A stretch of 61,014 nt of DNA, from positions 1 through 61,014 of the forward strand of contig JACPNJ010000006.1 of the NCBI GenBank assembly GCA_016185545.1, given 5' to 3'. This document shows, piece after piece, positions 287-58,316 of the stretch. Origin of the DNA: Candidatus Yanofskybacteria bacterium (GTDB lineage: Bacteria > Patescibacteriota > Minisyncoccia > 2-02-FULL-40-12 > IGHO2-01-FULL-4-A). Under the pieces are notes generated by a model. That model made no database searches. It had not been told where the DNA came from and worked only from the letters and a program-made list of their open reading frames with translations. Position 1 is the first letter of the stretch; each line of letters opens with the position of its first letter. Made by a program: the position numbers and the translations under genes.

Positions 287-1115
287 AGGTGATATGTAAA
301 ATCGCCTAGTTGTATGCTAATGTTAAGATACAGCTAAAATCAGCTCATATCGGGGAAAGTTTAAAAAACCAATCCCGAGGGAAGTTGGAATTATGTGCCA
401 CATATTAGATGTATTTTAGGAGACGGATATATTTATCCAAAAGGCGCCATACAAATCGAGCAGGGAATCAGACAAAAAGATTATCTGCTTTGGAAGTTTA
501 GACAATTGAAAAACCTCGTATCTGTAAAACCGAGATTAATTACTAGAAAACGACGAGATGGAAGCGTCGGTCAATCATGTAGATTTGTGTTAAAACAATA
601 TTTCAGACCGTGGCGTAAGATATTTTACCCAAATGGCAAGAAAGTAATAAATGATAGGGTGTTGGACCTTATCACGCCTCTTTCTTTGGCCGTTTGGTAC
701 ATGGATGATGGTTGCAAGAAAAATAACTACACATTGATTATCTCTACTGATTCTTTCAGTAAAAATAGCATCGGCAAAATTAGAAAATTGCTAAAAAATA
801 AATGGAATATTAAAACAAGAATAAAAATTAAAAAATATGGAAAGAAAAAGTACGAGAGATTAACAATCGGCAGTTATGATTTAGTAACATTTATGGATTT
901 AATCCGTCCGTATATTATACCTAGTATGTTGTACAAAATTTCTGACCCCTTAACGACTTACTCGATTAAACGCCAACACAGGCTTTAATCGGGAGATAGT
1001 AAGTGATGAAGCTTCGGCTGATGGCTTACTATAAAACGCTGGTCCAGTTTCTTTATATAAAAGAACTGGAAAGGTATAGTCTAACTTTTCTTTTAATAAA
1101 AAGAGAGAGGACTGG
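287..1115 (+). mobile_element. Insertion 1 in 16S rRNA (intron-like intervening sequence) carrying a homing-endonuclease ORF
   Basis: 16S colinearity breaks after GTCGTCAGCTCGT (about 286) and resumes at ..TTAAGTGGGGAAACGAGCGCAACCC (about 1116). The intervening sequence is AT-rich and encodes ORF 395-988. Boundaries are accurate to about 10 nt. Confidence 0.7.
395..988 (+). CDS. LAGLIDADG-family homing endonuclease (two-motif type)
   Basis: Motifs ILGDGYIY near the N-terminus and LAVWYMDDGC in the middle. The ORF lies inside the rRNA insertion. Confidence 0.8.
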   Translation: MPHIRCILGDGYIYPKGAIQIEQGIRQKDYLLWKFRQLKNLVSVKPRLITRKRRDGSVGQSCRFVLKQYFRPWRKIFYPNGKKVINDRVLDLITPLSLAVWYMDDGCKKNNYTLIISTDSFSKNSIGKIRKLLKNKWNIKTRIKIKKYGKKKYERLTIGSYDLVTFMDLIRPYIIPSMLYKISDPLTTYSIKRQHRL

Positions 1116-1392: not shown

Positions 1393-2354
1393 AGAATTAA
1401 TTGCGCATGGCAGTTTGTAAAACTAAATAGTTAAAATCTATTCCTCCGGGACCCGCCCGGAAGCGTAGTTGAAAGGTAGTCCCGAATTCGCGAGAATCGG
1501 GGCGAAGGACCTGGAAACAAACCGCAGCCAAATCTATCCGCCGTTGGCGGAGACTTGCATTGACCTCTATACAGGCGGTGAGGTAGAGGGAAAATGTCGC
1601 AAAAAGGTCGTTTGGATGTGAGGAATAGTTTTGCAAATAACCCATGGAGATCTCGTGTGGTTACGGAACTTTGACACCACACGAGAAGTCAGCTCTGTCA
1701 TAGTATTGTTGATAACTAAAAAACATGAAAATGTTATACTTGGTGTATGTATACACCGAAACAACAAGAAGGACAGAACCTATTGGACCCAAATTATATT
1801 GTTGGATTTGTCGATGGAGAAGGATGTTTTTCTGTGGGGTGCAGTCGAAGACCCGATATAAAGTCGGGATATGATATTCGGGCTGCATTCGAAATAGAAA
1901 TGGTAATAGATGACAAGTCAATCCTAGAAAAAATTCATGAAACTCTGGAAAAGCCTGGTCATATTTACACTTATGAATTTAAACGTTACCCTCGCTGGAA
2001 ACCACACTGTAAATTAAAGGTCTCTAGCATGAAGGGGCTAACAGAAATAATCATCCCTTTCTTCAAAAAATACCGATTGCAATCAAAAAAGAGAAAAAGT
2101 TTTGAAATTTTCTGCAAAATTGTCAAAATGATTTCTGAAAAGAAACATCTTAAAATATCCTATGCAAAAAAGATTGTTGCAATGAGGAATAAAATGAATC
2201 CAACAGGAAAAGGAAATAGAAAATATCATCTTGTCCAATGGGGCTCGCGTAGTGCGGGAAATCCGCTCGCTACGCCCAATCGTAAAAAGATTGGCCCCGA
2301 TCGCTATGTTTAGTGGTCGCGGATGGGGAATCTAAAGTATGTTCCTACTGAAGA
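1393..2354 (+). mobile_element. Insertion 2 in 16S rRNA (intron-like intervening sequence) carrying a homing-endonuclease ORF
   Basis: 16S colinearity breaks after GCGGTGAATACGTTCTCGATCTTTGCACTC (about 1392) and resumes at AATTCCGCCCGTCATTGC (about 2355). This splits the universal GTACACACCGCCCGT region. Boundaries are accurate to about 10 nt. Confidence 0.7.
1747..2313 (+). CDS. LAGLIDADG-family homing endonuclease
   Basis: Classic N-terminal motif YIVGFVDGEGCF. The ORF lies inside the second rRNA insertion. Confidence 0.8.
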   Translation: MYTPKQQEGQNLLDPNYIVGFVDGEGCFSVGCSRRPDIKSGYDIRAAFEIEMVIDDKSILEKIHETLEKPGHIYTYEFKRYPRWKPHCKLKVSSMKGLTEIIIPFFKKYRLQSKKRKSFEIFCKIVKMISEKKHLKISYAKKIVAMRNKMNPTGKGNRKYHLVQWGSRSAGNPLATPNRKKIGPDRYV

Positions 2355-3219: not shown

Positions 3220-3705
3220 TTACGCCCTTGATTCAAGAACAGTAACGCGATGTTCAAGCTTGTTAATTTTTCTTGTAGCCCCGGGCAAAAGTTCTTCCTT
3301 TACTTCTTTCATATCTGTCTTTAGCACGGTCATATCCTCTTTCATTACAGTCATATCCTCTTTCATTACAGTCATATCCTCTTTCATTACGGTCATATCT
3401 TCTTTCATCACAGTCATATCCTCTTTCAACTCCGCAACCGTTTCCATAAGCACTTCTGTTTTAATTTCTAGTTTGTCTAGGCGTTGATCTACATGCCCCA
3501 GATGTTTATTTATGTTTACGAGATTGCGGTTTGTATCAATATACTGCTCGGCCACCACCTTAACTTCGTTATCAAATTTCTCATATAAAACTCCCATGAA
3601 AGTTTTCATCTCATCCTTAAAACCTCGGATATTTTTACCGATTTTGGTTTCTAATTTATTTAAATCACCCTTGGTTGCAAACTGGTTTTCTGATTTATTG
3701 GTCAT
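3220..3705 (-). CDS. Hypothetical coiled-coil protein with 5-6 tandem MKEDMTV heptads
   Basis: 161-aa ORF with heptad-rich sequence. It contains the 21-bp tandem DNA repeat. Confidence 0.65.
   Translation of the reverse strand: MTNKSENQFATKGDLNKLETKIGKNIRGFKDEMKTFMGVLYEKFDNEVKVVAEQYIDTNRNLVNINKHLGHVDQRLDKLEIKTEVLMETVAELKEDMTVMKEDMTVMKEDMTVMKEDMTVMKEDMTVLKTDMKEVKEELLPGATRKINKLEHRVTVLESRA
3310..3435. repeat. 21-bp tandem repeat (about 6 copies, unit catatcctctttcattacagt)
   Basis: Near-identical 21-nt units are read directly at 3331, 3352, 3373, 3394 and 3415, with a degenerate unit at 3310. They are in frame in ORF 3220-3705. Confidence 0.9.
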
Positions 3706-5672: not shown

Positions 5673-6377
5673 ATGAGGCTTCCACACAAAACTCTTGAAA
5701 AAAAATTATTTGCGGACGGTTATCGCCATGTTATTGGCATAGATGAAGTTGGAATGGCTTGTCTGGCCGGACCTGTTTATGTTTGCGCGGTTTTGTTTAC
5801 TAAAGAATTTTTCGAAAAACCACATAAAAACCTGATCGGCTTGCGCGACTCCAAACAACTCTTACCGCATCAACGCGAAAAATTTTATGCCGAACTTATA
5901 AAAGAAGAGGGGATTAAGTACCAATTGGCTTCCTGCAATCCGAAAACAATAGACAAAATTAATATATATCAGGCGGCAAGGTTGACAATGAGAAGAGCCG
6001 TGAACAAACTAGGCGTCAGGTGCCAGGTGTCAGGTGTCAGAAAATCAAAACAAAAAAATTTTTACCTGAAACCTGTAACCTGCAACCTGAAACCTGCCGT
6101 TGTATTGGTTGATGGCAAGACTCCCATTAACGGTCTAAATCTGCCTCAAATGGCAATCGTGAAAGGCGACCGCAAGATTTTTGCTATTGCCTGCGCCTCT
6201 ATTATAGCCAAGGTTACCAGAGACCGCGTTATGTCACACCTTGCCAAGCGCTACCCCCAATACGGTCTTGAAAAACATAAGGGCTACCCAACCAAACTGC
6301 ACAAAGCCATGCTCATCCAACACGGTATTTGCGAAATACACAGAAAGTCTTTTGCACCAATAACTAAACTGCTATAA
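5673..6377 (+). CDS. rnhB: Ribonuclease HII, with a 29-codon in-frame heptamer-array insertion
   Basis: GIDEVGMACLAGPV (catalytic DE), VLVDGK, and IACASIIAKVTRD..YGLEKHKGYPT..H. Confidence 0.9.
   Translation: MRLPHKTLEKKLFADGYRHVIGIDEVGMACLAGPVYVCAVLFTKEFFEKPHKNLIGLRDSKQLLPHQREKFYAELIKEEGIKYQLASCNPKTIDKINIYQAARLTMRRAVNKLGVRCQVSGVRKSKQKNFYLKPVTCNLKPAVVLVDGKTPINGLNLPQMAIVKGDRKIFAIACASIIAKVTRDRVMSHLAKRYPQYGLEKHKGYPTKLHKAMLIQHGICEIHRKSFAPITKLL
6011..6097. repeat. Heptamer-periodic inverted array inside rnhB
   Basis: Sequence is aggcgtc aggtgcc aggtgtc aggtgtc ag, then an A-rich loop, then acctgaa acctgta acctgca acctgaa acctg. It is 87 nt (29 codons) with no stop. Confidence 0.9.
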
Positions 6378-6760: not shown

Positions 6761-7765
6761 ATGAATAAAATCGCAATCAATGGCTTTGGTCGTATAGGAC
6801 GGATATTTTTCAGGCAGGCATTCGGCCGTGCCGATTTGGATGTTGTCGCGATTAATGATTTGGGTACACCGGAAAATTTGGCTTACCTTTTGAAATACGA
6901 CACTGTGTACGGCCGATACGAAAAAGAGGTCGGCTATAAGGACTCCACGCTGGTAATTGAAGGCAAAGAGATTAGAGTGCTCAATGAAAAAGAGCCGGCT
7001 AAACTGCCATGGAAAGAACTTGGTGTAGATATTGTCATTGAATCAACCGGGGTTTTTGATTCGCGGGAACTTGCCGCGGCCCATCTTGACGCCGGCGCTA
7101 AGCGGGTAATAATTACCGCTCCCGCTAAAGACGAAATTACTCCTACGGCTACTCCGGGCCTTCTTGAAAACACCAAGCTGGATAAAATCACCTCCAATGC
7201 TTCCTGCACCACCAATGCCGTTAATCCTGTCATGGCGATAATGATGGCAAATCCCGGGGTACAAAAGGCGATACTTACAACTGTGCATGGTTACACGGCT
7301 ACGCAAGGTCTCGTAGATGGACCGGACAAAAAAGGCGATTTCCGCCGCGCCCGCGCGGCGGCGCAAAACATTGTGCCCTCCACAACCGGCGCGGCGGCGG
7401 CTACAGCCAGGGTTCTGCCGGGCCTCGCCGGTAAATTTGATGGCTTGGCAATCCGCGTACCGGTTCTATCCGGCTCGCTTATTGATATTACATTCCTGTC
7501 CGCCCGCCCGACTACAGCAGAAGAAATAAACGGCATATTTAAAGAAGCGGCCGTCCGACCGGAATGGCAGGGGATTTTGACTGTTACCGAAGACCCACTT
7601 GTATCATCTGATATTTTGCGTAATCACCACGGTTCAATCGTTGATTTGGCTTTAACACGCGTAGTTGATGGAGATTTGGTAAAAATTTTTTCCTGGTATG
7701 ATAACGAGTGGGGTTACGGAGCGATGCTTTTAAAGCATGTGCTCACGGTAGCTAGCATAATTTAA
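6761..7765 (+). CDS. gap: Glyceraldehyde-3-phosphate dehydrogenase, type I
   Basis: NGFGRIGR Rossmann start, active-site SNASCTTN, and WYDNEWGY near the C-terminus. Confidence 0.95.
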   Translation: MNKIAINGFGRIGRIFFRQAFGRADLDVVAINDLGTPENLAYLLKYDTVYGRYEKEVGYKDSTLVIEGKEIRVLNEKEPAKLPWKELGVDIVIESTGVFDSRELAAAHLDAGAKRVIITAPAKDEITPTATPGLLENTKLDKITSNASCTTNAVNPVMAIMMANPGVQKAILTTVHGYTATQGLVDGPDKKGDFRRARAAAQNIVPSTTGAAAATARVLPGLAGKFDGLAIRVPVLSGSLIDITFLSARPTTAEEINGIFKEAAVRPEWQGILTVTEDPLVSSDILRNHHGSIVDLALTRVVDGDLVKIFSWYDNEWGYGAMLLKHVLTVASII

Positions 7766-15211: not shown

Positions 15212-16899
15212 GCGGCTTGCTCTTGTCCCTTGCCTATTCGGGTTGGAGTTTTGATTTGGGCTGGCTGGTCTGGATTGGATTTGTTCCACTTTTTTGGTCG
15301 TTGGCCCAAATCGTTTCCGAATACGAACATACTCGGAAACGATTTGGATTTTTGATAGGGTTCATCGCAGGACTTGTTTATTTTTTGATAATTTTCCGCT
15401 GGTTTTGGTCTATCTATCCGCTGGATACACTTGGCATTGAAAACCGTTCTATCTCCTTCGTCGCTGTTCTGCTTGTTTATCTGATTAGCTCTGCCGGAAT
15501 GGCAGTGTTTTGGGGACTTTTTGGAGCAGGTTTCAGGTTTCAGGTTTCAGGTTTCAGGTTTCAAAATGGATCAAGCACCTGGCACCTGGCACCTGGCACC
15601 TGGCACCCTTTGTTAATACTTTCCGCCCTATTCGTCCTGTTTGAATATCTCCGCTCCTGGGGTTTCGGGTTTTTGTGGGCCGGTTCCAATTCGCTTTTTG
15701 GCCCGCATTGGACATTGGGCAATCTGGCTTATGCTTTGGCCGATAATCCATTGGCGCTCAAACTCGCTTCGTTTGTTGGCGTCTATGGGGTTACTTTTGC
15801 GATTATTTTTATAAATTGCCTAATTTTTATAATTTTAAAAAAAAGGACTTATCTTGTAACCACAAGAATAGTCCTTGTGGTTTTGATACTTTTATTGGCT
15901 ACCTTTGGAACCAGGTTAATTAAATTTACGGCCACGCAGCAAGAAAAAAGTAAACAAGTTAACTTCGCCATTATACAAACCGCCCGGCCAACCAAAGTTT
16001 TGCCAAGTCCTCAAGAAACCTTGGCCGATCTCAAAGAACAGCTTGAATTACTTGACCGTGTCGCCAAAGAACATCCCGAAAGCCAGCTTATCGTTTTCCC
16101 CGAAACAAGCGACCTATTTAAAAATATCGCCCTGTTTTTAACCCCAGTGCAAGCCCAGGAATATTTTAGCAATCTTTTTGAAGATCCGAAATTAATAATT
16201 GCCGGCGGTAGAGTTATTGATTCCAATAGCAGTGCCTACTCACGTGTTTTCGATCTTAATACACAAAACGGCATTATCAACTATTATGATAAGCGTCTTC
16301 TAACTCCAGGCGGTGAATTTTTGCCTTACCCGGTAAAATTAATCGCTTGGATATTTTCAAAAACCACGGCCAATCAATTTGACAGCTTGCGCGAATTAAA
16401 TGTTGGCGTTAAAGATGTCTCAACTGTAAACTTCCGCGACCAATTTAAGGTAGCACCGATGATTTGTTCTGAATTGCTATCACCGAGTTTAGTCAAACAA
16501 ACTTCCCAAAGTTCAGATGTAATCGTCAGTATGGCAAGTTATGGAATTTTTCACGGAAATCCTGTTATAGCAAAGCAGATGCTTGCCACTACACGCTTCA
16601 GAGCAATAGAGAACACCAAACCAGCCGTTACCGCCGCTAATTTGGGACGCTCTTATGCAATAGACAGTCGAGGAAAAGTTGCTTATTTAGCCGCAAACTC
16701 CGATCCGCAGATATTAACAGGTTCTATTGTGCTAGGTTCCGGTAAATCGTGGTATAATAGAGTAGGCGATTTGCCAATAATTTTGGTATCTTTGCTATTG
16801 ATGGTCCTAGGGTTCAGGTTACAGGTGTCAGGTTACAGGGGAAGAATAAAATCTTGGTTATGGAGGAACCAAGAAATTAAAAATGGTAAATTCCTATAA
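15175..16899 (+). CDS. lnt: Apolipoprotein N-acyltransferase with heptamer-array segments
   Basis: Polytopic N-terminal half, then a CN-hydrolase domain (AIIQT.., VFPETS, APMICSEL). Confidence 0.8.
   Translation: MAKYRYYALAALSGLLLSLAYSGWSFDLGWLVWIGFVPLFWSLAQIVSEYEHTRKRFGFLIGFIAGLVYFLIIFRWFWSIYPLDTLGIENRSISFVAVLLVYLISSAGMAVFWGLFGAGFRFQVSGFRFQNGSSTWHLAPGTWHPLLILSALFVLFEYLRSWGFGFLWAGSNSLFGPHWTLGNLAYALADNPLALKLASFVGVYGVTFAIIFINCLIFIILKKRTYLVTTRIVLVVLILLLATFGTRLIKFTATQQEKSKQVNFAIIQTARPTKVLPSPQETLADLKEQLELLDRVAKEHPESQLIVFPETSDLFKNIALFLTPVQAQEYFSNLFEDPKLIIAGGRVIDSNSSAYSRVFDLNTQNGIINYYDKRLLTPGGEFLPYPVKLIAWIFSKTTANQFDSLRELNVGVKDVSTVNFRDQFKVAPMICSELLSPSLVKQTSQSSDVIVSMASYGIFHGNPVIAKQMLATTRFRAIENTKPAVTAANLGRSYAIDSRGKVAYLAANSDPQILTGSIVLGSGKSWYNRVGDLPIILVSLLLMVLGFRLQVSGYRGRIKSWLWRNQEIKNGKFL
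15528..15607. repeat. Heptamer-periodic inverted array inside lnt
   Basis: (aggtttc)x4-5, loop aaaatggatcaag, then (cacctgg)x3-4. It is translated as FRFQVSGFRFQ..STWHLAPGTWHP. Confidence 0.9.
16809..16840. repeat. Heptamer array, left arm of the cassette enclosing four-helix-bundle gene 1
   Basis: Sequence agggttc aggttac aggtgtc aggttac aggg, located in the last codons of lnt. Confidence 0.85.
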
Positions 16900-17239
16900 G
16901 GATTTGACTGTTTGGCAAAGGTCTCTCGAGTTAGTCAAAGAAATTTATAAAACAACTAGATTTCTACCAAAAGATGAAATTTATGGTTTAACGAATCAGA
17001 TGAGAAGGGCAGCAATATCGATACCTTCTAACATAGCCGAGGGACATCAAAGAAAAAATCTAAAAGAATATCTGCAATTCTTGAGAATATCTTATGGCTC
17101 GGCTGCAGAGCTAGAAACACAGCTTATTATTTCCAAAGAAATATATCCACGCATAGATTTTTTGACAGCGGAGTCGCTTCTTAAGGAAGTTCATAAAATG
17201 TTAAATACTCTGATCCAGAAACTTGAATTAAAATTTTAA
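16883..17239 (+). CDS. Four-helix-bundle protein (23S rRNA intervening-sequence protein family)
   Basis: Family signature Y.DL.VWQ....L...IY......P..E.YGL..Q.RRAA.SI..NIAEG.....K.....F..I..GS..E..T. Confidence 0.85.
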   Translation: MVNSYKDLTVWQRSLELVKEIYKTTRFLPKDEIYGLTNQMRRAAISIPSNIAEGHQRKNLKEYLQFLRISYGSAAELETQLIISKEIYPRIDFLTAESLLKEVHKMLNTLIQKLELKF

Positions 17240-22292: not shown

Positions 22293-22339
22293 TTTAAAAA
22301 TGAGTTCTAGAAATAAGGAGGCTAGGACGCAAATAAAAA

Positions 22340-22705
22340 GTGGATAAAATTCATTCGTACAGAGATTTAGTGGTATGGCAAAGGTCCATTGAGCTAGTTA
22401 TAGAAATATACACGCTAACTGATAGGTTTCCGAAAGAAGAAATTTACGGACTAATTTCGCAATTAAGGAGAGCTGCCGTTTCAATCCCTTCTAATATCGC
22501 CGAAGGCAGGTATCGTGGGACAAGAAAAGATTTTAGGCAATTTCTTCTTAATGCTTACGGCTCTGGCGCTGAAGTTGAAACACAATTGGTTATTGCAAAT
22601 AAATTGCCGAAAACAAAAAATTTAAATTATGTCAGAGCAAATAAAATTCTAGATGAAGTAATGCTAATGTTAAATTCACTAATCAAAAAATTGGAAACTT
22701 CTTAA
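22340..22705 (+). CDS. Four-helix-bundle protein (23S rRNA intervening-sequence protein family), second copy (GTG start)
   Basis: YRDLVVWQRSIEL..IY..FPKEEIYGLISQLRRAAVSIPSNIAEG..FL..AYGSGAEVETQL. By eye it is roughly half identical to copy 1. Confidence 0.85.
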   Translation: MDKIHSYRDLVVWQRSIELVIEIYTLTDRFPKEEIYGLISQLRRAAVSIPSNIAEGRYRGTRKDFRQFLLNAYGSGAEVETQLVIANKLPKTKNLNYVRANKILDEVMLMLNSLIKKLETS

Positions 22706-22740: not shown

Positions 22741-23046
22741 ATGAGATTCCAAGTCCCCCAATTCATAGAAACGGAAACCAAAATCGTCGGGCCATTCACG
22801 TTCAAGCAATTTTTGTTTCTGGCCGTTGGGGCGGTAATAATTTTTATCCTGCAATATGTAATCACCAGTTTTACTTTTTTAATAATTGTGGCTCTGCCGA
22901 TTGCTGCCTTATCCATTGCGCTTGCGTTTTACCGGATAGATGGCATACCCTTGCCGCAATACTTATTGATGGCATTATCATATGCGACGGGGGCGAAAAG
23001 ATACCAATTCACTAAAGAAAATAAGCAAAATTATTTGCAAAAATAG
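22741..23046 (+). CDS. PrgI-family (VirB3-like) small membrane protein
   Basis: N-terminus MRFQVPQFIETETKIVGPFTFKQFLFL followed by two transmembrane segments. It lies just upstream of VirB4-like genes. Confidence 0.7.
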   Translation: MRFQVPQFIETETKIVGPFTFKQFLFLAVGAVIIFILQYVITSFTFLIIVALPIAALSIALAFYRIDGIPLPQYLLMALSYATGAKRYQFTKENKQNYLQK

Positions 23047-23114
23047 GTTTCAGGTTACAGGTTTCAGGTTACAGAAAATTAAACCTGACACCTGACACCT
23101 GACACCTGACACCT
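23045..23114. repeat. Heptamer-periodic inverted array (stop-to-start)
   Basis: Sequence aggtttc aggttac aggtttc aggttac ag, loop aaaattaa, then (acctgac)x4 acct. It overlaps the TAG stop at 23044-23046 and ends at the TTG start at 23114. Confidence 0.9.
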
Positions 23115-23755
23115 TGCCCACACCGCCCAAAAACCAGTCCACCAAAGATTTCGTAGAAATCGCGGACATCCGCGAGAGTGTTGCGGTCTTAAAAGATGGG
23201 TCTTTGCGTTCTGTTATTGAAGTTGGTTCAATGAATTTTGAGCTTAAGTCAGCCGATGAACAAATGGCAATAATAAGCGCTTTCCAGAATTTCCTGAATT
23301 CCATTGATTTTCCGCTTCAAATCGCCGTTAATTCGCGTAAATTAGAAATCGGACCATATATGAAGTCGCTTAATGAACTGACCCAGAGCATTTCCAATGA
23401 ACTTATGAAAATCCAGGCCATTGAATACACGCGTTTCATCAAAGGACTAACGGAACTTGCCAATATAATGTCAAAAAAGTTTTATATTGTCGTTCCGCTG
23501 TATATTGTGGAAACGATCGGCAAGGGAGAACAGGGAACTGGAATTTTAGGCGCTTTCAGAAGCGTGGTTAGCCCTTCCAAATTCACTAAAACCCTCACTG
23601 ATCAAGAATTTGAAAATTATAAAACACAACTTAGTCAAAAAAACCAGTTTGTCATGGACAGCATCAGCGGATTAGGCATTGAAACGCGGATATTGGGAAA
23701 AGAGGAGCTAATGAATCTTTATTATTCTTATTACAATCCGGGACATCAATTATAA
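23114..23755 (+). CDS. VirB4/TraE-like protein, N-terminal domain fragment (TTG start)
   Basis: DFVEIADIRESVAVLKDGSLRSVIEVGSMNFELKSADEQMAIISAFQNFLNS resembles the N-terminal region of Gram-positive VirB4-type ATPases. It is in the same reading frame as 23894-25618. Confidence 0.6.
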   Translation: MPTPPKNQSTKDFVEIADIRESVAVLKDGSLRSVIEVGSMNFELKSADEQMAIISAFQNFLNSIDFPLQIAVNSRKLEIGPYMKSLNELTQSISNELMKIQAIEYTRFIKGLTELANIMSKKFYIVVPLYIVETIGKGEQGTGILGAFRSVVSPSKFTKTLTDQEFENYKTQLSQKNQFVMDSISGLGIETRILGKEELMNLYYSYYNPGHQL

Positions 23756-23760
23756 AAAGA

Positions 23761-23830
23761 AGGTGTCAGGTGCCAGGTTTCAGGTTACAGAAAATCACAC
23801 CTGACACCTGACACCTGACACCTGACACCT
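23761..23830. repeat. Heptamer-periodic inverted array between the two VirB4 parts
   Basis: Sequence aggtgtc aggtgcc aggtttc aggttac ag, loop aaaatcac, then (acctgac)x4 acct. Confidence 0.9.
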
Positions 23831-23893
23831 AAAATTTCATTATTCGCTAAAAAACCACAACCAATCGCTTCGCCCACAGAACCGCCTGTAAAA

Positions 23894-25618
23894 ATGTTGG
23901 ACGATATCTTGGCTCCTTCGGCGATTGATATTTCTTCCAACTATCTGCAAATAGGCGATACTTACGCCCGCACTTTTTTCTTAGCAACTTATCCGAGATA
24001 TCTAAATACCAACTGGTTTTCTCCGATTGTTAATATGGATCGGCCTTTTGACGTGTCTATTTTTGCGCATCCGGAAAATACTGCCCAAATGCTCAAGCAG
24101 CTACGCGATCGGCTTGGCCGGCTTCAGGCTCAGGAAATGGAGGAACAAGCGGCCGGTAAAGTAAGAGATCCGGTGTTGGAAACGGCTATCGGCGACATTG
24201 AGGCGCTTAGGGATAAACTACAGCAAGGAACAGAAAGATTTTTTAGATTGGGAGTTTATATAACGATATACGGCGGTTCGCTAAAAGAACTTGATGATAC
24301 GGAAAATAAAATCAAGTCAATTCTTGACGGTCAGCTGGTTTATTCAAAACTAGCAACTTTCAGAATGAAAGAAGGATTTTTCTCAACCCTGCCGCTTGCC
24401 GACGACCAGCTTCAGGTCCATAATTCATTGAATACCGAACCGATTTCCTCGCTTTTTCCTTTCGTGTCTTATGACCTGACCACAGAGAAGGGAATACTTT
24501 ACGGAATAAATACTCACAATAATTCTCTGGTTTTATTTGACAGGTTTAGTATGGAAAATGCGAATATGGTGATTTTCGGAAAGAGCGGCGGCGGTAAATC
24601 ATATGCCGTTAAATTGGAAATTCTCAGAAGTTTGATGTTTGGCACGCAGGTTTTTGTGATTGACCCTGAAAACGAATATAAATTCCTATCTGACACTGTA
24701 GGCGGCACTTCCATTAAAATATCCATCACCTCACCGCACCATATCAATCCGTTTGATCTGCCCAAGCCGTTACCCGATGAAAGTCCGGCTGACGTTTTAC
24801 GTTCTCATATTATTAATCTAATGGGTCTTTTTAAGCTCATGCTGGGAACGCTTACGGCGGAAGAAGAGGCGATTTTGGACGAAACCATAAATCAAACCTA
24901 TGCCATTAAGGACATAACGCCCCAAACGGCCGATTTGAAAAACGCCGTGCCACCGTTGATGTCGGATTTTCAAAATGTTTTAGAGGGCATGGCCGGCACG
25001 GAATCTTTGGTCATCAGGATTAAAAAGTATACTGAAGGTACATTTGCCGGTTTTTTGAATAATCCGACCAACGTTGAGTTAAATAATCAGCTGATAGTTT
25101 TCGGCATTCGCGACATGGAAGAAGAACTGCGCCCGATTGCCATGTATTTGGTGCTCAATTTTATTTGGACGCAAGTCAGAACAGAGTTGAAAAAACGTAT
25201 TTTAGCCGTGGATGAGGCGTGGGTATTGATGAAATACGAATCCGGAGCGGCATTTTTGTTCAATATAGCCAAGCGTGCACGCAAATACTATTTGGGTTTA
25301 ACAACAATTTCCCAAGATATTCCGGATTTCATGGCTTCGCCGTACGGCAAACCGATTGTTACCAATTCATCCCTGCAGTTGCTATTAAAACAATCGCCGG
25401 CATCAATCGACTTGGTTAAACAAACATTCAACCTGACAGATGCGGAAAAATTTTATCTTCTGGAATCGCGTGTGGGTCACGGTTTGTTTTTCGCCGGCAT
25501 CAATCATGTGGCCTTGCGGGTGATAGCATCATACGCTGAAGATCAGATTATTACCTCTGACCCAAGACAGATATTGGAAATAGAGGAAGCTAAAAAAGAA
25601 CTAGCAAAGCAAAGTTAG
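23894..25618 (+). CDS. VirB4-like type IV secretion ATPase, C-terminal (NTPase) part
   Basis: Walker A FGKSGGGKSY and Walker B ILAVDEAW, followed by TTISQD. The upstream region (NTNWFSPI.., FDVSIF) is typical of VirB4 middle domains. Confidence 0.8.
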   Translation: MLDDILAPSAIDISSNYLQIGDTYARTFFLATYPRYLNTNWFSPIVNMDRPFDVSIFAHPENTAQMLKQLRDRLGRLQAQEMEEQAAGKVRDPVLETAIGDIEALRDKLQQGTERFFRLGVYITIYGGSLKELDDTENKIKSILDGQLVYSKLATFRMKEGFFSTLPLADDQLQVHNSLNTEPISSLFPFVSYDLTTEKGILYGINTHNNSLVLFDRFSMENANMVIFGKSGGGKSYAVKLEILRSLMFGTQVFVIDPENEYKFLSDTVGGTSIKISITSPHHINPFDLPKPLPDESPADVLRSHIINLMGLFKLMLGTLTAEEEAILDETINQTYAIKDITPQTADLKNAVPPLMSDFQNVLEGMAGTESLVIRIKKYTEGTFAGFLNNPTNVELNNQLIVFGIRDMEEELRPIAMYLVLNFIWTQVRTELKKRILAVDEAWVLMKYESGAAFLFNIAKRARKYYLGLTTISQDIPDFMASPYGKPIVTNSSLQLLLKQSPASIDLVKQTFNLTDAEKFYLLESRVGHGLFFAGINHVALRVIASYAEDQIITSDPRQILEIEEAKKELAKQS

Positions 25619-25695
25619 GTTTCGGGTGTCAGGTTTCAGGGACCAGGTTAAAGAAAAATTTTCCCTGTAACCTGTAACCTGTAACCTGTAACCTG
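25617..25695. repeat. Heptamer-periodic inverted array (stop-to-start)
   Basis: Sequence aggtttc gggtgtc aggtttc agggacc aggttaa, loop agaaaaattttc, then (cctgtaa)x4 cctg. It overlaps the TAG at 25616-25618 and abuts the ATG at 25696. Confidence 0.9.
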
Positions 25696-26361
25696 ATGCC
25701 GGATGATCAATACTACTACGACCTTGCTTATGCCCGAGGACAGCAACAAGAACAGAGAGAAATCCAAGATACTGCCAATCGTGTTATAAAACCGCCATCG
25801 GGTACGTTATATTTTTTTCTTTACTGTCTTGCTGGAATTGGCGATATATTGGATTGGCTCACTCTCACCGGAATTGGAGCTATTGTTTCCTTTATAGTTG
25901 ACCTTTTTATCGGCATAATACTATTTTTCGCCGGACGCGCGGCAAGAGACAGGATAAAAACCATGAATGAATTCCAGGATGGCCTTCATGGACATATACA
26001 AAATATCGAAAGGAAAATTGTTGCTTACAGAAATGCTTATGCTAAAATTTTAAGAGTGTCCCGAAAAGTTAAGATCCTAAGAAAACCAGTCAGGAAACTT
26101 GCATTAAGATTCGCAAGATTGCGAAAAAGTGTTGCCAGAAGTCCCTTGGGAAGAACGATTGCCGCAATTATCGCTGATTTAATCCCTTTTTTAGATCTTA
26201 TGCCTTGGCGAACTATTAATATCTATATGATGAAAAAACAAGAAATGCAGGCTTTCCAAGACGCTCAAAATATGTTACCTGAATATATGGAGGCCAAAGC
26301 AGATGAAATAGAAGCGGCAAACGATTTGCAAGAAGCAGAGATGACAGAACAAGCCGCATAA
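25696..26361 (+). CDS. Hypothetical membrane protein (two transmembrane segments, basic or amphipathic tail)
   Basis: 221-aa ORF in the cluster. No recognisable family. Confidence 0.55.
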   Translation: MPDDQYYYDLAYARGQQQEQREIQDTANRVIKPPSGTLYFFLYCLAGIGDILDWLTLTGIGAIVSFIVDLFIGIILFFAGRAARDRIKTMNEFQDGLHGHIQNIERKIVAYRNAYAKILRVSRKVKILRKPVRKLALRFARLRKSVARSPLGRTIAAIIADLIPFLDLMPWRTINIYMMKKQEMQAFQDAQNMLPEYMEAKADEIEAANDLQEAEMTEQAA

Positions 26362-35261: not shown

Positions 35262-35463
35262 CTGATTTTCCTTGCATCAGGCGGAGGCCATAGAGGTTTG
35301 CGGGGATTCTGAAATTGTGTGATTGCATGGCCGGCGAGCAGTATAATGTCTTGTGCGGTAGCACACTGCGAGCCGAATCCACAATTTCAAAATAGTGGAG
35401 CGAGTCGCTGGACGAGCGGAACGTCCCCGCAGACCTCTATGGCGGAGCCGCAAGGAAAATCAG
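35262..35463. repeat. 202-bp palindromic element (MITE-like, or a structured RNA) downstream of jag
   Basis: The outer arms ctgattttccttgc / gcaaggaaaatcag pair, then ccatagaggtttgcgggga / tccccgcagacctctatgg, then gaaattgtgtgatt / gaatccacaatttc. The right end is repeated at 48042-48086. Confidence 0.6.
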
Positions 35464-35981
35464 AGAGGAAGTGATGGTTTAATGACAACCCGGCGCCTTG
35501 GTTCCTGGCCAATGCTTTCAGTTTGAAGTTCCTTAAATGACGCCAACTCGGTATGCACCAATCGCCGCTCATAAGAACTCATGGGCAATAGCGCCTCCGC
35601 TTTTTGAGTCTGGATTACCCGCTTGGCGGTATTGCGAGCTACATCAACCAAATAATTAGTTTTTGATTTGCGATAATCATTAATATCAACCATAAAATTA
35701 ATTGGAAATTCAACATTATAATTGTTAAGCTTCTTATTAACAAGTAAATGAGCAATATGATCAAAAGCACTAAGATTTTGCCCATTTTTACCAATTAGTA
35801 TACTTAAATCATCATCAGAATCAATGGAAACGATAAAGAAACTTCTTTTTTCTTCACGGGTTAGATCATTATTCGCCGGCACTGGCGTATTATCACTTAA
35901 TTTAACTACACCACCAAAACCAACTTTGTTTAAAAGGTCTAGAACTGTTTCCTCAATTTTATTTTTTATATCATCGGGCAT
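35460..35981 (-). CDS. jag: Jag/KhpB-like RNA-binding protein (KH + R3H)
   Basis: C-terminal R3H region LPMSSYERRLVHTEL. It holds the conserved position after yidC. Confidence 0.8.
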   Translation of the reverse strand: MPDDIKNKIEETVLDLLNKVGFGGVVKLSDNTPVPANNDLTREEKRSFFIVSIDSDDDLSILIGKNGQNLSAFDHIAHLLVNKKLNNYNVEFPINFMVDINDYRKSKTNYLVDVARNTAKRVIQTQKAEALLPMSSYERRLVHTELASFKELQTESIGQEPRRRVVIKPSLPL

Positions 35982-35986: not shown

Positions 35987-36691
35987 TTACCGGTATTTCC
36001 GGTTTATATAAAGCTGTTCAAATATGGAAAAAGCCGTAGCGGTTACCCAATAAATGGTCAACCCGGCAGGTAAATTCCAAGCGATAATTATAACCATAAT
36101 CGGGAAAAAATACAACATCTGCTTACTCATTTGGAAAGTGGGAGAAGGAATCTCGTTTTTGGAAGCCGGGGCTTGAAAAGAAGCTGCTTTTTTTGATTGA
36201 AACCATTGTAAAATTCCGGCTAAAACGGCTAAAATGGCATTCTTTTGGGTAAGGTTAATGAACCCAAATGCAATTTGTTTTATAGCCACTGGATGACTTA
36301 CAAACGAATATAAAGCCGTAAGACTTTCGGGTTTTAATCCAGAATTTAATGCGCTATAAAGCGCAATTAGAACCGGAAGTTGTATAAGGAGCGGCAAACA
36401 GCCGCCAAACGGATTTACATTATGCTCCTTATAAAGGGCCATGGTTGCCTGACCCAGTGCTTGCTTGTCGTTTTTGTGTTTTTCCTGAAGCTCTTTGATT
36501 TTTGGCTGAAGCTTGCTTAATTCTTTTTGCGATACCAGCGCTTTAATTGATAAGGGTGTAAATACTAATCTAACTACGATTGTCAGTAAAATAATCGCTA
36601 CGCCAAAATCATTTCCAGGAACAATGTTGTAAATAAAAACCAAGAGGTTGAATAGGGGACGGAAGAGAAGTTCGTTGTATAAAAAACCCAA
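35987..36691 (-). CDS. yidC: YidC/Oxa1-family membrane insertase (TTG start)
   Basis: PL..KA..SQ.E...LQPKIKELQEK.K.D, NPFGGCLP.LIQ.P, and the conserved operon position. Confidence 0.85.
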   Translation of the reverse strand: MGFLYNELLFRPLFNLLVFIYNIVPGNDFGVAIILLTIVVRLVFTPLSIKALVSQKELSKLQPKIKELQEKHKNDKQALGQATMALYKEHNVNPFGGCLPLLIQLPVLIALYSALNSGLKPESLTALYSFVSHPVAIKQIAFGFINLTQKNAILAVLAGILQWFQSKKAASFQAPASKNEIPSPTFQMSKQMLYFFPIMVIIIAWNLPAGLTIYWVTATAFSIFEQLYINRKYR

Positions 36692-36693
36692 AC

Positions 36694-36766
36694 TAGGTTA
36701 TAGGTTATAGGTTATAGGTTATAGGTTTAAAATTTCTAACACCTATAACCTATCAGCTATCACCTG
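36694..36766. repeat. Heptamer-periodic inverted array (yidD stop to yidC start)
   Basis: (taggtta)x4-5, loop taaaatttctaa, then cacctat aacctat cagctat cacctg. The plus-strand right arm contains the yidD TGA, and the other end lies 2 nt from the yidC start. Confidence 0.9.
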
Positions 36767-36990
36767 ATTTCATATATTCCGCCTCTAGACAGCGGATTAC
36801 ATCTTAAAATCCTTGCCAGTCCTTTTAACACGCCCTTTACTACTCCCCATCTCTCAATCGCTTCATATGTATATTGCGAACAACTTGGATAAAAACGACA
36901 GCGCATACTGCCTCCGGCAAAAATGAACCCGTGGTCAGGCGAAATTGTTGCTTGATAAAATCTAATTATTTTTAAAAATATTTTTGTCAT
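36760..36990 (-). CDS. yidD: Membrane protein insertion efficiency factor YidD
   Basis: [13 protein letters not shown]...G..KG..L...RI.RCNP. Confidence 0.9.
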
Positions 36991-37322
36991 TGACTGATAA
37001 TTTTATTTAATGTTTGCTGAATTTCTCTATTGATTTCTTTTGACTGCTTCCCTACGATATCCACAGTAGCAATAATTGCGATATCGTACGATTTTTCCAA
37101 AAAATGTCCAGAGCGAATCGCTTCCGTAAAAATTCTTTTGATGCGATTTCTTGCGGTTGCCTTTTTTGCGACCTTAACGGGAATAATTATTGCTATCCGC
37201 AAAAAATCAATATTATTTTTTAAAAACTTAATAAAGAAAAAACTGTTTCGGACAGTTTTTCCATGTTTGAATAGGCGGTTAATATCTTTCCTGGGTAAAC
37301 GGTATTTTTTGGCTAAAGCCAA
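36987..37322 (-). CDS. rnpA: Ribonuclease P protein component (TTG start)
   Basis: Basic protein with ..ATARNRIKR.. (RNR motif), positioned directly after rpmH. Confidence 0.85.
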
Positions 37323-37328
37323 GCATTC

Positions 37329-37388
37329 AGGTTATAGGTTACAGGTTATAGGTTACAGGTTTTTTCTGACACCTGACGCCTGACACCT
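37329..37388. repeat. Heptamer-periodic inverted array (rpmH stop to rnpA start)
   Basis: Sequence aggttat aggttac aggttat aggttac aggt, loop tttttct, then gacacct gacgcct gacacct. Confidence 0.9.
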
Positions 37389-37524
37389 AAACAGTAAGCT
37401 GTTGTCTTCCTTTCCGGCGACGGCGAGCTAAAACTTTTCTGCCATTTTTGGACCTAGCCCGTTTTAAAAATCCATGAGTCTTGGCTCTTTTCTTCTTTTT
37501 TGGACGATATAATGTAATTTTCAT
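37387..37524 (-). CDS. rpmH: 50S ribosomal protein L34 (45 aa; below the ORF-track length cut-off)
   Basis: Hand translation gives [45 protein letters not shown]. Confidence 0.9.
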
Positions 37525-37579
37525 CCTGTACGAGGTAGCAACAGCAACCACATAAGTTAAGTTACGTACCCGCGATTAT
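37522..37579. repeat. 58-bp inverted repeat, left copy (forms the rpmH leader and start codon)
   Basis: Its reverse complement, ataatcgcgggtaCgtaacttaacttatgtggttGctgttGctacctcGtacAggATG, matches 39500-39557 with 5 mismatches. Confidence 0.9.
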
Positions 37580-39499: not shown

Positions 39500-39557
39500 A
39501 TAATCGCGGGTATGTAACTTAACTTATGTGGTTACTGTTACTACCTCTTACGGGATG
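39500..39557. repeat. 58-bp inverted repeat, right copy (forms the dnaN leader and start codon)
   Basis: Sequence ataatcgcgggtaTgtaacttaacttatgtggttActgttActacctcTtacGggATG. See 37522-37579. Confidence 0.9.
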
Positions 39558-44876: not shown

Positions 44877-44887
44877 AGCGAATTTTA

Positions 44888-44962
44888 AGGTTTCAGTTTT
44901 CAGGGATCAGGTTTCAGGTACTAGAGAAGAACCTGTAACCTGTAACCTGTAACCTGTAACCT
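44888..44962. repeat. Heptamer-periodic inverted array (yebC stop to ruvC start)
   Basis: Sequence aggtttc agttttc agggatc aggtttc aggtac, loop tagagaaga, then (acctgta)x4 acct. Confidence 0.9.
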
Positions 44963-45482
44963 ACTTCAAATTGGTGTACACATTCTCCACATCCTCATTA
45001 TTATCCAATTCTTCAAGAAGTTTATCTAATTTTTGTTGGATTTCCGGAGTAACTTCAATGGGCGTGTTTGGTTCCCAGTTTTTATTAAACATCCAGTTAA
45101 GAGAATTCTCTGGAACCATTTTTGCTTCATGTTCGGCAAGGATATGTTTAATTTCATTGACGATACGATTTTTGTTGTCAGTAATTCCCTCTATTATGAC
45201 GGCGACACTGCCTGGTCCTATAGCTTGAATAATTACTTCGTCTAACGAAGTAGTATCTTTTTCCGATGCTCTTTTGATTGCTCTCTCAATGTTTTCTTTG
45301 GGCATGTTAAAAGTTCTGGCCTCTTCAATGATTGATTGCAATTTATAGTTAGCCGAAGGATCAGTGCCCTCGCGTGCCGCAATTGATATTTTCTTTGCCA
45401 GCTTGCTAAAAAGCTGACCCTTTTTCTGGTCACTGATACCCTTTTTATGTTTTATTTGAGACCACTTCGAATGCCCGCTCAT
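44961..45482 (-). CDS. yebC: YebC/PmpR-family DNA-binding regulator (short form)
   Basis: MSGHSKWSQIKHKKG..D.KKG..FSKL.K.I..AAREG..DP..N..L...IE.A...NMPK..IERAI. Confidence 0.85.
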   Translation of the reverse strand: MSGHSKWSQIKHKKGISDQKKGQLFSKLAKKISIAAREGTDPSANYKLQSIIEEARTFNMPKENIERAIKRASEKDTTSLDEVIIQAIGPGSVAVIIEGITDNKNRIVNEIKHILAEHEAKMVPENSLNWMFNKNWEPNTPIEVTPEIQQKLDKLLEELDNNEDVENVYTNLK

Positions 45483-46211: not shown

Positions 46212-46253
46212 AGTTGCTAATATAGCAACTATTCAAAACAGCGCAAGTTCCCT

Positions 46254-46292
46254 ACTTAGAGGCTCAACCTCCACGAGGTTGAGCCTCTAAGT
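46254..46292. repeat. REP-like perfect hairpin (17-bp stem), 3' flank of the HUH transposase gene
   Basis: Sequence acttagaggctcaacct CCACG aggttgagcctctaagt. It contains the gene's stop codon. Confidence 0.9.
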
Positions 46293-46973: not shown

Positions 46974-47012
46974 ACTTAGAGGCTCAACCTCGTGGAGGTT
47001 GAGCCTCTAAGT
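46974..47012. repeat. REP-like perfect hairpin, 5' flank of the HUH transposase gene (loop inverted relative to 46254)
   Basis: Sequence acttagaggctcaacct CGTGG aggttgagcctctaagt. Confidence 0.9.
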
Positions 47013-57110: not shown

Positions 57111-57113
57111 ATT

Positions 57114-58316
57114 ATGTCTAAGAAACAAATTTATCTGGATTATGCCGGGACGACACCAATGGATCCGCGGGTAGAACGGGTGGTTTTGAAGCACCTGCGG
57201 GAGAGCTGGGGCAATGCGTCGTCAGTGCATGAAATTGGAAGGCAGGCAAGAAAAGTAATTGAGGATTCTCGCAAAACCGTAGCAAAAGTTTTGGGAGTAA
57301 AATCGGAGGAGATAATTTTTACCGGCTCTGGCACCGAATCGGCAAATCTGGCGATATTTGGAGTGGCGAGGGCATATAAAAAATACGGCAAACATATTAT
57401 AACTTCAAAATTTGAGCATCCTGCCGTTTTGCGCGCTTGCCAGTATCTGGAGCAAAATGAGGGGTTTAAAGTTAGCCATTTGGATGTCAGTAAAAACGGA
57501 ATTATTAATCCAGAATCCGTACGCAGAGCATTGAGACCGGACACAATTTTAGTTTCAATTATGTATGCCAATAACGAGATTGGCACGATACAGCCAATTG
57601 CGGCTATCTCTAAAATCTTAAAAGATTTTAGAGATAGCCGCAGGTTACAGGTTACAGGTTACAGGTTACAGATGTATGAAAAAGCTCTGCTTTTTCATAC
57701 TGACGCTTGCCAAGCGGCAGGAGCTTTGAATTTAAATATTAATCAACTTGGCGTTGATTTAATGACGCTTAACGGCTCCAAAATTTACGGTCCTAAGGGA
57801 ACTGGCTGCCTTTATGTCAGACGAAATATTGAGCTTGCGCCTCAAATAGTTGGCGGGTCTCAAGAAAGGGGATTACGCGCCGGCACGGAAAACCCCGCTT
57901 TAATTGCCGGATTTACTGAGGCGCTAAAAATCGTCGATAAAAACCGTGCCAAAGAAAACGCGCGATTAACTGAACTGCGCGATTATATGATTGGGCAAAT
58001 TTTAAAAACAATTCCCGGCGGTTGTCTTAATGGTGACGCAATTAAACGTTTGCCTAACAATATCAATATCTCCTTCAAAGATACAGACGGCGAAATGCTG
58101 ATGTTGGCATTTGATCAAAAAGGTATTCAAGTTTCAACCGGTTCCGCTTGCACCTCCACTTCAACTGAACCATCGCATGTGCTCAAAGCCATTGGTTTAT
58201 CCGATGAACTTGCAAAAGGAAATATCCGTATAACTCTTGGCCGGCAGACAAAGAAAAAAGACATAGACTATGTCCTAAAGACGCTCGTATCTCTTGTGAA
58301 AAAATTACGCAAATAG
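57114..58316 (+). CDS. Cysteine desulfurase (NifS/IscS class), with an in-frame heptamer-array insertion
   Basis: YLDYAGTTP, HTDACQA, the PLP lysine in LNGSKIYGPKG, and the catalytic Cys in STGSACTS. The start is set at ATG 57114, downstream of the terminator hairpin. Confidence 0.9.
   Translation: MSKKQIYLDYAGTTPMDPRVERVVLKHLRESWGNASSVHEIGRQARKVIEDSRKTVAKVLGVKSEEIIFTGSGTESANLAIFGVARAYKKYGKHIITSKFEHPAVLRACQYLEQNEGFKVSHLDVSKNGIINPESVRRALRPDTILVSIMYANNEIGTIQPIAAISKILKDFRDSRRLQVTGYRLQMYEKALLFHTDACQAAGALNLNINQLGVDLMTLNGSKIYGPKGTGCLYVRRNIELAPQIVGGSQERGLRAGTENPALIAGFTEALKIVDKNRAKENARLTELRDYMIGQILKTIPGGCLNGDAIKRLPNNINISFKDTDGEMLMLAFDQKGIQVSTGSACTSTSTEPSHVLKAIGLSDELAKGNIRITLGRQTKKKDIDYVLKTLVSLVKKLRK
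57642..57671. repeat. Heptamer array (single arm, AGGTTAC x4) inside the cysteine desulfurase gene
   Basis: Sequence aggttac aggttac aggttac aggttac ag, translated as RLQVTGYRLQ. A perfect 11-bp hairpin follows at 57674-57700. Confidence 0.9.

Follow-up and report, generated by a model that had tools for sequence, protein, structure and literature searches.

How does a ribosome find the start of a gene when the gap in front of it is filled from stop codon to start codon by a repeat-built hairpin, when the start codon is TTG and when no Shine-Dalgarno (SD) sequence precedes it? The question is raised by the rpmH-rnpA-yidD-yidC operon of a Candidatus Yanofskybacteria bacterium, an uncultivated organism of groundwater type and a member of the Patescibacteriota or candidate phyla radiation (CPR), present on contig JACPNJ010000006.1 of assembly GCA_016185545.1, of which the whole analysed stretch of 61,014 nucleotides is called here the window. 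In this operon, the stop-to-start gaps of the rpmH|rnpA and yidD|yidC junctions are each spanned by a hairpin of 64-68 nt made of two inverted heptamer arrays. We show that both spacers belong to a family of palindromic heptanucleotide-repeat elements with copies across the genome and that the presence of arrays is associated with non-ATG starts. As a tentative answer, which we consider quite possible although short of probable, a spreading palindromic repeat may have become a determinant of start site or of coupling in an organism with almost no SD sequences.

The operon lies on the minus strand and its genes were identified by Pfam profile matches. The rpmH gene for protein L34 (37387..37524; PF00468, E = 7e-18) runs from an ATG at 37524-37522 to a TAG stop at 37389-37387, rnpA (36987..37322; PF00825 over residues 4-108) starts with TTG at 37322-37320, yidD (36760..36990; PF01809) starts with ATG and ends with TGA at 36762-36760, and yidC (35987..36691; PF02096) starts again with TTG, at 36691-36689. 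A jag/KhpB-like gene with R3H and KH domains (35460..35981, ATG start) follows on the same strand, and dnaA is divergent from the operon, at 37796. The first-pass annotation of this DNA had described the whole operon as stitched together by arrays, which overstates the case since only two of the four junctions carry them; at rnpA|yidD the ATG of yidD overlaps the rnpA stop (ATGA) and at yidC|jag there is a 5-nt gap, both without array. At rpmH|rnpA and yidD|yidC, the arrays do run from stop to start as had been proposed, with coordinates that were right within 1 nt.

Read in the mRNA sense, the rpmH|rnpA spacer is TAG GTGTCAG GCGTCAG GTGTCAG AAAAAA (CCTGTAA CCTATAA)x2 CCTG aatgc TTG. The rpmH stop TAG doubles as the start of the first unit (TAGGTGT) of the 5' arm (37366..37389, minus strand; TAGGTGT CAGGCGT CAGGTGT CAG, from the sequence, Tandem Repeats Finder and the predicted fold). 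It is followed by the AAAAAA loop (37360..37365, minus strand; sequence and fold) and by a 3' arm (37328..37359, minus strand) which Tandem Repeats Finder reports with period 14 and 100% match, which the fold also places there and after which aatgc leads to the start codon. The yidD|yidC spacer reads AGGTGAT AGCTGAT AGGTTAT AGGTGTT AG aaattttaa (ACCTATA)x4 ACCTA gt TTG. Its 5' arm (36736..36765, minus strand; inverted repeat and fold) overlaps the last codon and the stop of yidD, this stop being the TGA within the first unit; the loop AAATTTTAA (36727..36735, minus strand; sequence and fold) separates it from a 3' arm (36694..36726, minus strand; 100% match in Tandem Repeats Finder, also seen in the fold) ending 2 nt from the yidC start. 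Both RNAs are predicted to fold into 5-bp CAGGU:ACCUG helices with 2x2 mismatches between them, with energies of -27.1 kcal/mol for the rnpA spacer (z = -2.2, a weak value) and -30.9 kcal/mol for the yidC spacer (z = -4.3).

Several simpler identities for these spacers were considered and discarded. They are not intrinsic terminators: no terminator-like site was found in either spacer, there is no T-tract and the interrupted stems lead into the start codon. CRISPR arrays or TIGR-type (tandem interspaced guide RNA) guide arrays do not fit either, the units being head-to-tail and without intervening spacers. Read-through or bypassing of the T4 gene 60 type was rejected because the rpmH and rnpA frames differ and the downstream proteins have their own complete conserved N-termini. 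With Rfam 15 at gathering score, only rRNA and tRNA pass in the window, and the spacers give sub-threshold noise from miRNA-precursor models. We also dropped the idea that the stem is lengthened by the U of UUG, which could for instance pair with the stop codon: when TTG and ATG are exchanged in silico, the energy moves in either direction and by less than 2-3 kcal/mol, and start-codon pairing in the predicted folds is inconsistent. Finally, the constant position of the G-rich arm on the 5' side of the gene was withdrawn as evidence of orientation; since a palindrome is identical on both strands, only the chirality of the family and the orientation of the A-rich loop are informative.

The two spacers are members of a large family. 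The ACCTnnn-triplet pattern ACCTNNNACCTNNNACCT has 36 matches in the window versus 0 in 100 shuffles, and Tandem Repeats Finder detects about 20 period-7 arrays with an AGGT/ACCT core. In each element, (C/T)AGGTnn units make up the 5' arm and nnACCT(G/A) units the 3' arm, with an A-rich loop in between, and most copies fold into periodic interrupted stems with z values of -4 to -10. They have the AGGT/ACCT core and AGAAAAT-like loops in common, while arm units and copy numbers vary. At junctions between genes, the upstream stop sits in the 5' foot of the hairpin and the downstream start 0-5 nt beyond the 3' foot; such array-to-start gaps of 0-5 nt were found at rnpA, yidC, 23114, 23834, 25696 and 22741. 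The stop is TAG, read as the first unit (TAGGTnn), in 5 of 6 genes preceding an array versus 14 of 52 other genes. No transposase was found among the 19 of about 58 window proteins that were scanned against Pfam.

Outside the operon, further hairpins of this kind separate genes. On the plus strand, the one at 23045..23116 (fold z = -7.0) extends from a TAG stop at 23044-23046 to the TTG at 23114 of a conserved gene upstream of a VirB4-like ATPase, this TTG directly adjoining the array 23083-23114; the next (hairpin 23761-23830, the feature as a whole being 23761..23836; fold z = -10.4) is followed after 3 nt by an ATT at 23834-23836, and the third (25616..25698) leads from a TAG stop at 25616-25618 to the ATG at 25696 of an array-abutted gene which has kept this codon. 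On the minus strand, the yebC|ruvC hairpin (44884..44963) begins with the yebC stop TAG at 44963-44961, and the ruvC ATG at 44876 lies 7 nt from the end of the array given by Tandem Repeats Finder (44884) and about 13 nt (TAAAATTCGCT) from the last clear ACCT unit.

Are the TTG codons the true starts? In rnpA and yidC, each is the first start codon following an in-frame stop inside the array. YidC homologues place the window in Candidatus Yanofskybacteria-like Parcubacteria/Paceibacteria, and the relatives used for comparison are labelled by locus (L001 and so on). By tblastn against 160 related loci, residue 1 of both RnpA and YidC aligns to a codon which, at every locus with a short spacer, is ATG. 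The YidC N-terminus (M-x-F-L-Y...) has the same position in 35 homologues, some of which were called with L or V as residue 1, and the M-A-L-A-K N-terminus of RnpA orthologues begins at the same codon, whether ATG or TTG. The next in-frame starts are at least 16 codons downstream in yidC and at least 40 in rnpA, and their use would delete conserved or invariant residues. Homology thus anchors the two TTG starts that had been called from the sequence alone.

The gene at 23114 had been presented as the N-terminal part of VirB4, with the same kind of start. Its TTG at the array and its lack of SD stand, and its N-terminus, (M)PTPPK, corresponds to ATG-CC.. in relatives; the gene itself is separate from VirB4 in every relative. 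A VirB4 gene split by the hairpin was therefore rejected, since relatives have the same two genes and the second one of the window most likely starts at ATT. In relatives, the VirB4-like ATPase begins M-[AS]-L-F-G-K-K a few bases past the preceding stop, and the window has at 23834 the aligned codons ATT-TCA-TTA-TTC-GCT-AAA-AAA (I-S-L-F-A-K-K). From this alignment, the ATPase (TraG P-loop, AAA_10; 23834-25618, plus strand) most likely starts at the ATT 23834-23836 and not at the ATG 23894. This ATT, 3 nt past a hairpin, would constitute a fourth near-cognate start at a hairpin foot.

No SD, defined as at least 4 nt complementary to the 16S 3' end at 4-13 nt upstream, was found before rnpA, yidC or 23114; the AGGTG motifs of the spacers are at least 40 nt upstream of the starts, in the paired 5' arm. 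The absence noted at first pass is thus real, but it does not distinguish these genes: any 4-nt match at a sensible distance exists in only about 5-8 of about 58 called window genes, about 85-90% being without, and the lack of SD is a genome-wide norm, not special to rnpA and yidC. The 3' end of the window 16S rRNA carries a canonical anti-SD (...GGATCACCTCCTTTCT). This partial 16S rRNA gene (25-2493, plus strand) contains large insertions, with the Rfam model positions 875-1387 spread over 1.3 kb, the 3' end at about 2440-2493 and open reading frames (ORFs) 395..988 and 1747..2313 within the insertions; 16S genes interrupted by insertions are typical of CPR bacteria.

The start codons themselves are informative. 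Within the window, array-less genes keep ATG and 4 of about 7 array-led genes do not. We extended the count to 247 non-redundant homology-anchored junctions from nine gene families: with a period-7 array upstream, 13 starts are non-ATG and 10 are ATG; with a structured upstream region but no detectable array, the numbers are 8 and 33, and with an unstructured one, 9 and 174. When arrays are defined more strictly, the odds ratio is 22 (p = 3e-8, uncorrected for phylogeny). The starts behind arrays are TTG (10), ATG (10) and GTG (3), a mix that looks like a relaxed choice among usable starts and not like a requirement for TTG. In the YidC tree, long spacers with non-ATG starts appear in at least four separate clades, interleaved with short-spacer ATG clades, and yebC|ruvC follows the same pattern in relatives (TTG in L088 and L005, GTG in L092). 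The operon was proposed at the outset as a test case for what the arrays do to initiation, and start-codon identity does co-vary with array presence across lineages. As a separate observation, the few hairpins of opposite chirality (L082, L088, L092, L020), with a pyrimidine-rich 5' arm and a purine-rich 3' arm such as TTAGAAG or ATTAGAA, are followed by ATG or GTG and never by TTG, which accompanies C/A-rich 3' arms; numbers in this comparison are small and phylogeny is uncontrolled.

The same operon in relatives shows what these junctions look like with and without the element. Many Parcubacteria loci have spacers of 0-12 nt and an ATG start, in line with the ordinary short spacers expected for such housekeeping genes. 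At other loci, hairpins recur where the window has them, namely at rpmH|rnpA (structured more often than any other junction, 16 of 35), yidD|yidC and yebC|ruvC and upstream of the 25696 orthologue, with units which are lineage-specific: ACCTATA, CTAGAAC, ATTTCTA/TTAGAAG, CTAGAAT, AACTTGA, CTTAAGC, AGCGTTT/CTATACG, TAAACGC, TAGAAAT and TACTAAT. The hairpins thus persist while the unit sequence turns over. A strict detector (at most 1 mismatch in 14) found few arrays in relatives because those arrays are degenerate, and it was replaced by Tandem Repeats Finder and a period-7 score. Identical spacers in independent assemblies of one lineage indicate that the arrays are not assembly artefacts.

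Two comparisons between close loci bear on constraint. Between the window and L082, every 3' unit AACCTAT has become AACCTAG and the 5' units have passed from ATAGG.. to CTAG.., a compensatory change made in concert. Identity of the yidC spacer is 93% with L083 and 88% with L001, versus 80-82% for the coding sequence and about 60% for third codon positions. Elsewhere, L090 and L094 have identical yidD|yidC regions and unrelated rnpA hairpins (ACCTATA type with TTG versus AGCGTTT/CTATACG type with GTG), and their rpmH stop codons differ; this looks like a cassette-like replacement of the rpmH|rnpA junction between close strains.

The TTG, GTG and ATT starts behind the hairpins suggest that these structures help to choose the translation start. 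Ordinary junctions have ATG in about 95% of cases; as AUG is then the main start signal, and UUG, GUG or AUU are tolerated only behind the elements, the element probably contributes start-site information. We propose that an inserted element would take part in start-site selection of the downstream gene in the following way. The G-poor repeated 3' arm may serve as a region where the ribosome lands and is positioned. It would be masked by the 5' arm until a terminating ribosome at the 5' foot opens the stem, which would amount to translational coupling by unmasking; a ribosome ending in the 5' foot, with a footprint reaching about 12-15 nt downstream, could open the basal units and the start codon. 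With positional information provided by the element, selection for AUG would be relaxed and TTG, GTG or ATT could accumulate at the same codon.

A number of observations weigh against this proposal. We infer the mechanism from geometry and comparative statistics only, and these statistics ignore phylogeny. About half of the array-led orthologues keep their ATG. Given ancestral gaps of 0-12 nt, any insertion sets its feet beside a stop and a start, so that abutment alone is no evidence of function, and the short, presumably coupled junctions stay 95% ATG, which means that re-initiation alone does not relax start choice. The rnpA hairpin is weak, as its z value shows, and fast-evolving, with a spacer identity of only 40-57%. 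The sense and the antisense strands fold equally well, or the antisense slightly better, so that G-U pairs give no sign of selection acting on the RNA. Furthermore, the arrays are no signals reserved for translation: elements of the same kind stand in frame inside the genes for RNase HII, Lnt and IscS, and these copies, together with others flanking two 23S_rRNA_IVP genes, indicate that the family spreads regardless of translation starts.

These coding copies, all on the plus strand, in frame and stop-free, deserve description because the strongest rival explanation draws on them. In the RNase HII gene (5673-6377), the element at 6011..6096 corresponds to query residues 116-137, 22 amino acids that the solved Thermotoga RNase HII lacks, its positions 97-98 being contiguous there. 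The Lnt-like gene (15175-16899) has one at 15527..15607, and a UvrD-like helicase gene (11036-14380) contains a single repeat arm. In iscS (57042-58316), the element at 57599..57671 is an 18-amino-acid insertion in which the 21 native coding bases just before it are repeated exactly in inverted orientation, with (CAGGTTA)x4.4 behind them; native coding sequence forms the 5' half of the resulting perfect 21-bp palindrome, which has a 2-nt loop, and the insertion looks like the product of fold-back or template-switch synthesis. Within a coding sequence, the gain or loss of one unit in such perfect 7-nt arrays means a frameshift. It is thus shown that the family has colonised both tiny intercistronic gaps and tolerant loops within coding genes.

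The rival in question holds that the arrays are selfish or neutral palindromic simple-sequence repeats, generated by slippage and fold-back (template-switch) synthesis and tolerated without any role in translation. The excess of near-cognate starts would then be a side effect of compensation for expression, of relaxed selection in array-rich lineages or of local mutagenesis at the feet of palindromes. This version of events, in which selfish palindromic repeats have only secondary effects, is the strongest competitor, and we regard it as somewhat unlikely. The stop-free copies in RNase HII, Lnt, IscS and the UvrD-like gene are what it expects, the IscS copy bears the signature of fold-back, many arms are perfectly homogeneous and hence point to recent slippage, and the units are lineage-specific with fast turnover, as the unrelated rnpA arrays of L090 and L094 beside identical yidC regions illustrate. 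The hairpin of the window yidC junction, including its loop GGTGTTAGAAATTTT(T)AAACCTATAACC, is found again at rnpA in L002, which suggests copying from site to site, and the short ancestral gaps make the abutment of stop and start trivial. This explanation has more difficulty with the start codons: in one and the same genome, the array-less genes keep ATG when four of about seven array-led ones do not, the association recurs in the independent yidC lineages and in other gene families, and, background selection for ATG being as strong as 95%, a purely mutational excess needs an implausibly high local mutation rate. Neither the conservation of the yidC spacer above synonymous sites nor the maintenance of arm complementarity through concerted changes is expected from it.

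A second possibility is that the hairpins act on the RNA and not on the ribosome, as cleavage sites of RNase III type or as barriers to 3' exonucleases, in the manner of repetitive extragenic palindromic (REP) sequences, which would segment the operon transcript by half-life. The cell would obtain, for instance, far more L34 than RnpA, and TTG would further lower downstream translation. Such a role agrees with hairpins that are intercistronic and, being without T-tract, are not terminators, with the predominance of rpmH|rnpA among the structured junctions of relatives and with the weak GTG start that E. coli rnpA also has. It could also accommodate the two PF05635 23S_rRNA_IVP genes (four-helix-bundle proteins; 16883..17239 and 22340..22705, plus strand), each flanked by a CAGGT/TAGGT-type arm on one side and, about 400 nt away, by an ACCT-type arm on the other (16811-17270 and 22253-22735) and thus in the loop of a long-range CAGGT/ACCTG stem; we take PF05635 to be named after ORFs inside rRNA intervening sequences that RNase III excises. 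The second of these genes has one of the few strong SDs of the window (AAGGAGG). Yet efficient cleavage of elements of the same family in RNase HII, Lnt and IscS would destroy those mRNAs, and many stems are interrupted every 5 bp by 2x2 mismatches, which presumably make a poor RNase III substrate. A step-down in expression makes, moreover, little sense from yidD to yidC. Processing or stability as the main role is improbable in our view.

Still less probable, and in fact very unlikely, is that the heptamers are bound by a sequence-specific RNA- or DNA-binding regulator of the downstream genes, such as S1, a Csp or a KH-domain protein. The strict 7-nt register and the very homogeneous 3' arms adjoining the starts are reminiscent of binding sites, the operon itself encodes a KH/R3H protein (jag), and a binding protein was proposed for the TAACTGA repeats of Beggiatoaceae (PMC4679880). 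The units at the same junction are, on the other hand, wholly different in close relatives (ACCTATA, CTAGAAC, ATTTCTA, AGCGTTT and others), and with such fast turnover a conserved binder would have to re-specify its target repeatedly. That the abutment is an annotation artefact with true starts at downstream ATG codons is scarcely credible: ORF-based calls do favour upstream TTG or GTG, as in the IscS ORF of the window, where homology begins only at residue 25, but the TTG codons align with residue 1 of ATG-starting orthologues, the next in-frame starts would lose conserved residues, and the pattern recurs in independent assemblies.

The coupling proposal also has a bolder form, distinctly unlikely by our own estimate, in which heptad-repeat hairpins would be an unrecognised class of SD-independent start-site determinants in CPR bacteria, acting as a bacterial counterpart of the pararetroviral ribosome shunt and spreading as a mobile palindrome. 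After termination at the 5' foot, the ribosome would be passed across the stem, or would unmask it, and could then initiate at any near-cognate codon (UUG, GUG, AUU) located 0-5 nt past the 3' foot. If this were true, the element would re-tune the coupling of genes wherever it lands.

The window contains other repeats as well. A 26-nt motif, CGCGGGTAYGTAACTTAACTTATGTG, is present at 37549-37574 (minus strand) and 39505-39530 (plus strand); extended to about 55 nt, it ends ...CTACCTC..TAC.GG directly 5' of the ATG of rpmH and of the gene downstream of dnaA, presumably dnaN, and at these two places it has no Rfam match and no significant fold. Elements similar to it, ending ...CTACCTCTAACGGG, occupy operon gaps of relatives (rnpA|yidD in L004 and yidC|jag in L005). 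A second repeat family, distinct from the heptamer hairpins, consists of a GC-rich perfect palindrome (ACTTAGAGGCTCAACCTC / GAGGTTGAGCCTCTAAGT), REP- or terminator-like, which recurs 3' of several genes (46253-46293, 46974-47012 and after 53962). A 21-nt tandem repeat (x4.8) is located at 3309-3428 (minus strand) within the ORF 3220..3705, and downstream of the gene 6761..7765, at 7750-7867, about 120 nt of AT-rich palindromic sequence contain AATTCAA/AAATTTT heptamers.

The significance of the operon hairpins comes from the fact that start-codon finding without SD is unresolved in much of bacterial diversity, CPR bacteria, Bacteroidetes and Cyanobacteria among them. Here, the place of the gap between universally conserved genes is taken by a structure built of repeats, and ATG has repeatedly been swapped there for TTG, GTG or ATT. 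Nature also supplies the variants for a falsifiable hypothesis, with the same junction present with or without hairpin, with different units and with ATG or TTG. In practice, gene callers should not reject near-cognate starts that adjoin such arrays. The coding copies indicate in addition that fast-evolving palindromic simple-sequence repeats can reside inside essential genes of highly reduced genomes.

How do these elements compare with known systems? REP sequences and bacterial interspersed mosaic elements (BIMEs) are dispersed imperfect palindromes between co-transcribed genes of enterobacteria, where they can shape differential expression inside operons through mRNA stability, and the window elements resemble them as dispersed palindromes between co-transcribed genes. 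REPs have, however, a conserved sequence without tandem heptamers, occur only outside genes, do not adjoin start codons and are associated with RAYT transposases; the window family is built of tandem heptamers, adjoins starts and has in-frame copies in RNase HII, Lnt and IscS. Concerning the unmasking step, the closest precedents are the MS2 coat-replicase junction and tap-repA of plasmid R1, in which the downstream initiation region is hidden in a stem until the ribosome that completes the upstream ORF melts it. Those are unique structures and usually have an SD, whereas the window hairpin is built of repeats, spans the whole gap, lacks an SD and precedes near-cognate starts. In the ribosome shunt of cauliflower mosaic virus and rice tungro bacilliform virus (RTBV), a short ORF ends before the base of a large stem and re-initiation occurs past its 3' foot, at a non-AUG codon (AUU) in RTBV; this pararetroviral shunt is a mechanism of scanning eukaryotic 40S subunits, and we know of nothing comparable shown in bacteria. 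E. coli has the same rpmH-rnpA-yidD-yidC gene order with spacers of 16 nt (rpmH|rnpA) and 2 nt and neither arrays nor hairpin, and its rnpA starts with GTG, so that a non-AUG start of rnpA is not new in itself.

The nearest relatives in form are the TAACTGA heptamers of marine Beggiatoaceae, some Cyanobacteria and some Bacteroidetes (MacGregor 2015, PMC4679880). They occur as 2-6 or more tandem copies ending a few nucleotides from the start, over the location of the SD, and the genes that they lead are mostly without SD despite a canonical anti-SD; they are found in ribosomal-protein operons and sometimes inside ORFs, and a role in translation was proposed but not shown (PMC4679880). The window arrays are likewise 7-nt tandem units (at least three head-to-tail) a few nucleotides from SD-less starts. 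TAACTGA is, in contrast, a single unit in direct repeats, with 169 direct sets versus 1 inverted (PMC4679880), when the window arrays are inverted pairs forming stop-to-start hairpins, with lineage-specific units, a statistical link to non-AUG starts and a CPR host. In Nostoc PCC 7120, recF and recO have contiguous STRR-type heptamers within 100 nt of the start codons, some overlapping them, and the authors, who also treat non-canonical SDs and a rare initiation codon, suspect a role in translation, the function being unproven (bioRxiv 10.1101/2022.06.06.494920). The Nostoc repeats are mostly in 5' untranslated regions or promoters, and neither a stop-start hairpin, nor inverted arms, nor a switch of start codon across lineages is reported for them (bioRxiv 10.1101/2022.06.06.494920). 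The units of these described families (TAACTGA, STRR1-3) are not matched by those of the window, (C/T)AGGTnn and nnACCT(G/A), nor by those of relatives (CTAGAAC, ATTTCTA, AGCGTTT and others), and our literature search found no description of such start-abutting heptamer hairpins in Patescibacteria. What is different here, compared with these systems, is the combination of stop-to-start hairpins made of inverted pairs, lineage-specific units at conserved junctions, a link to near-cognate starts and a CPR host.

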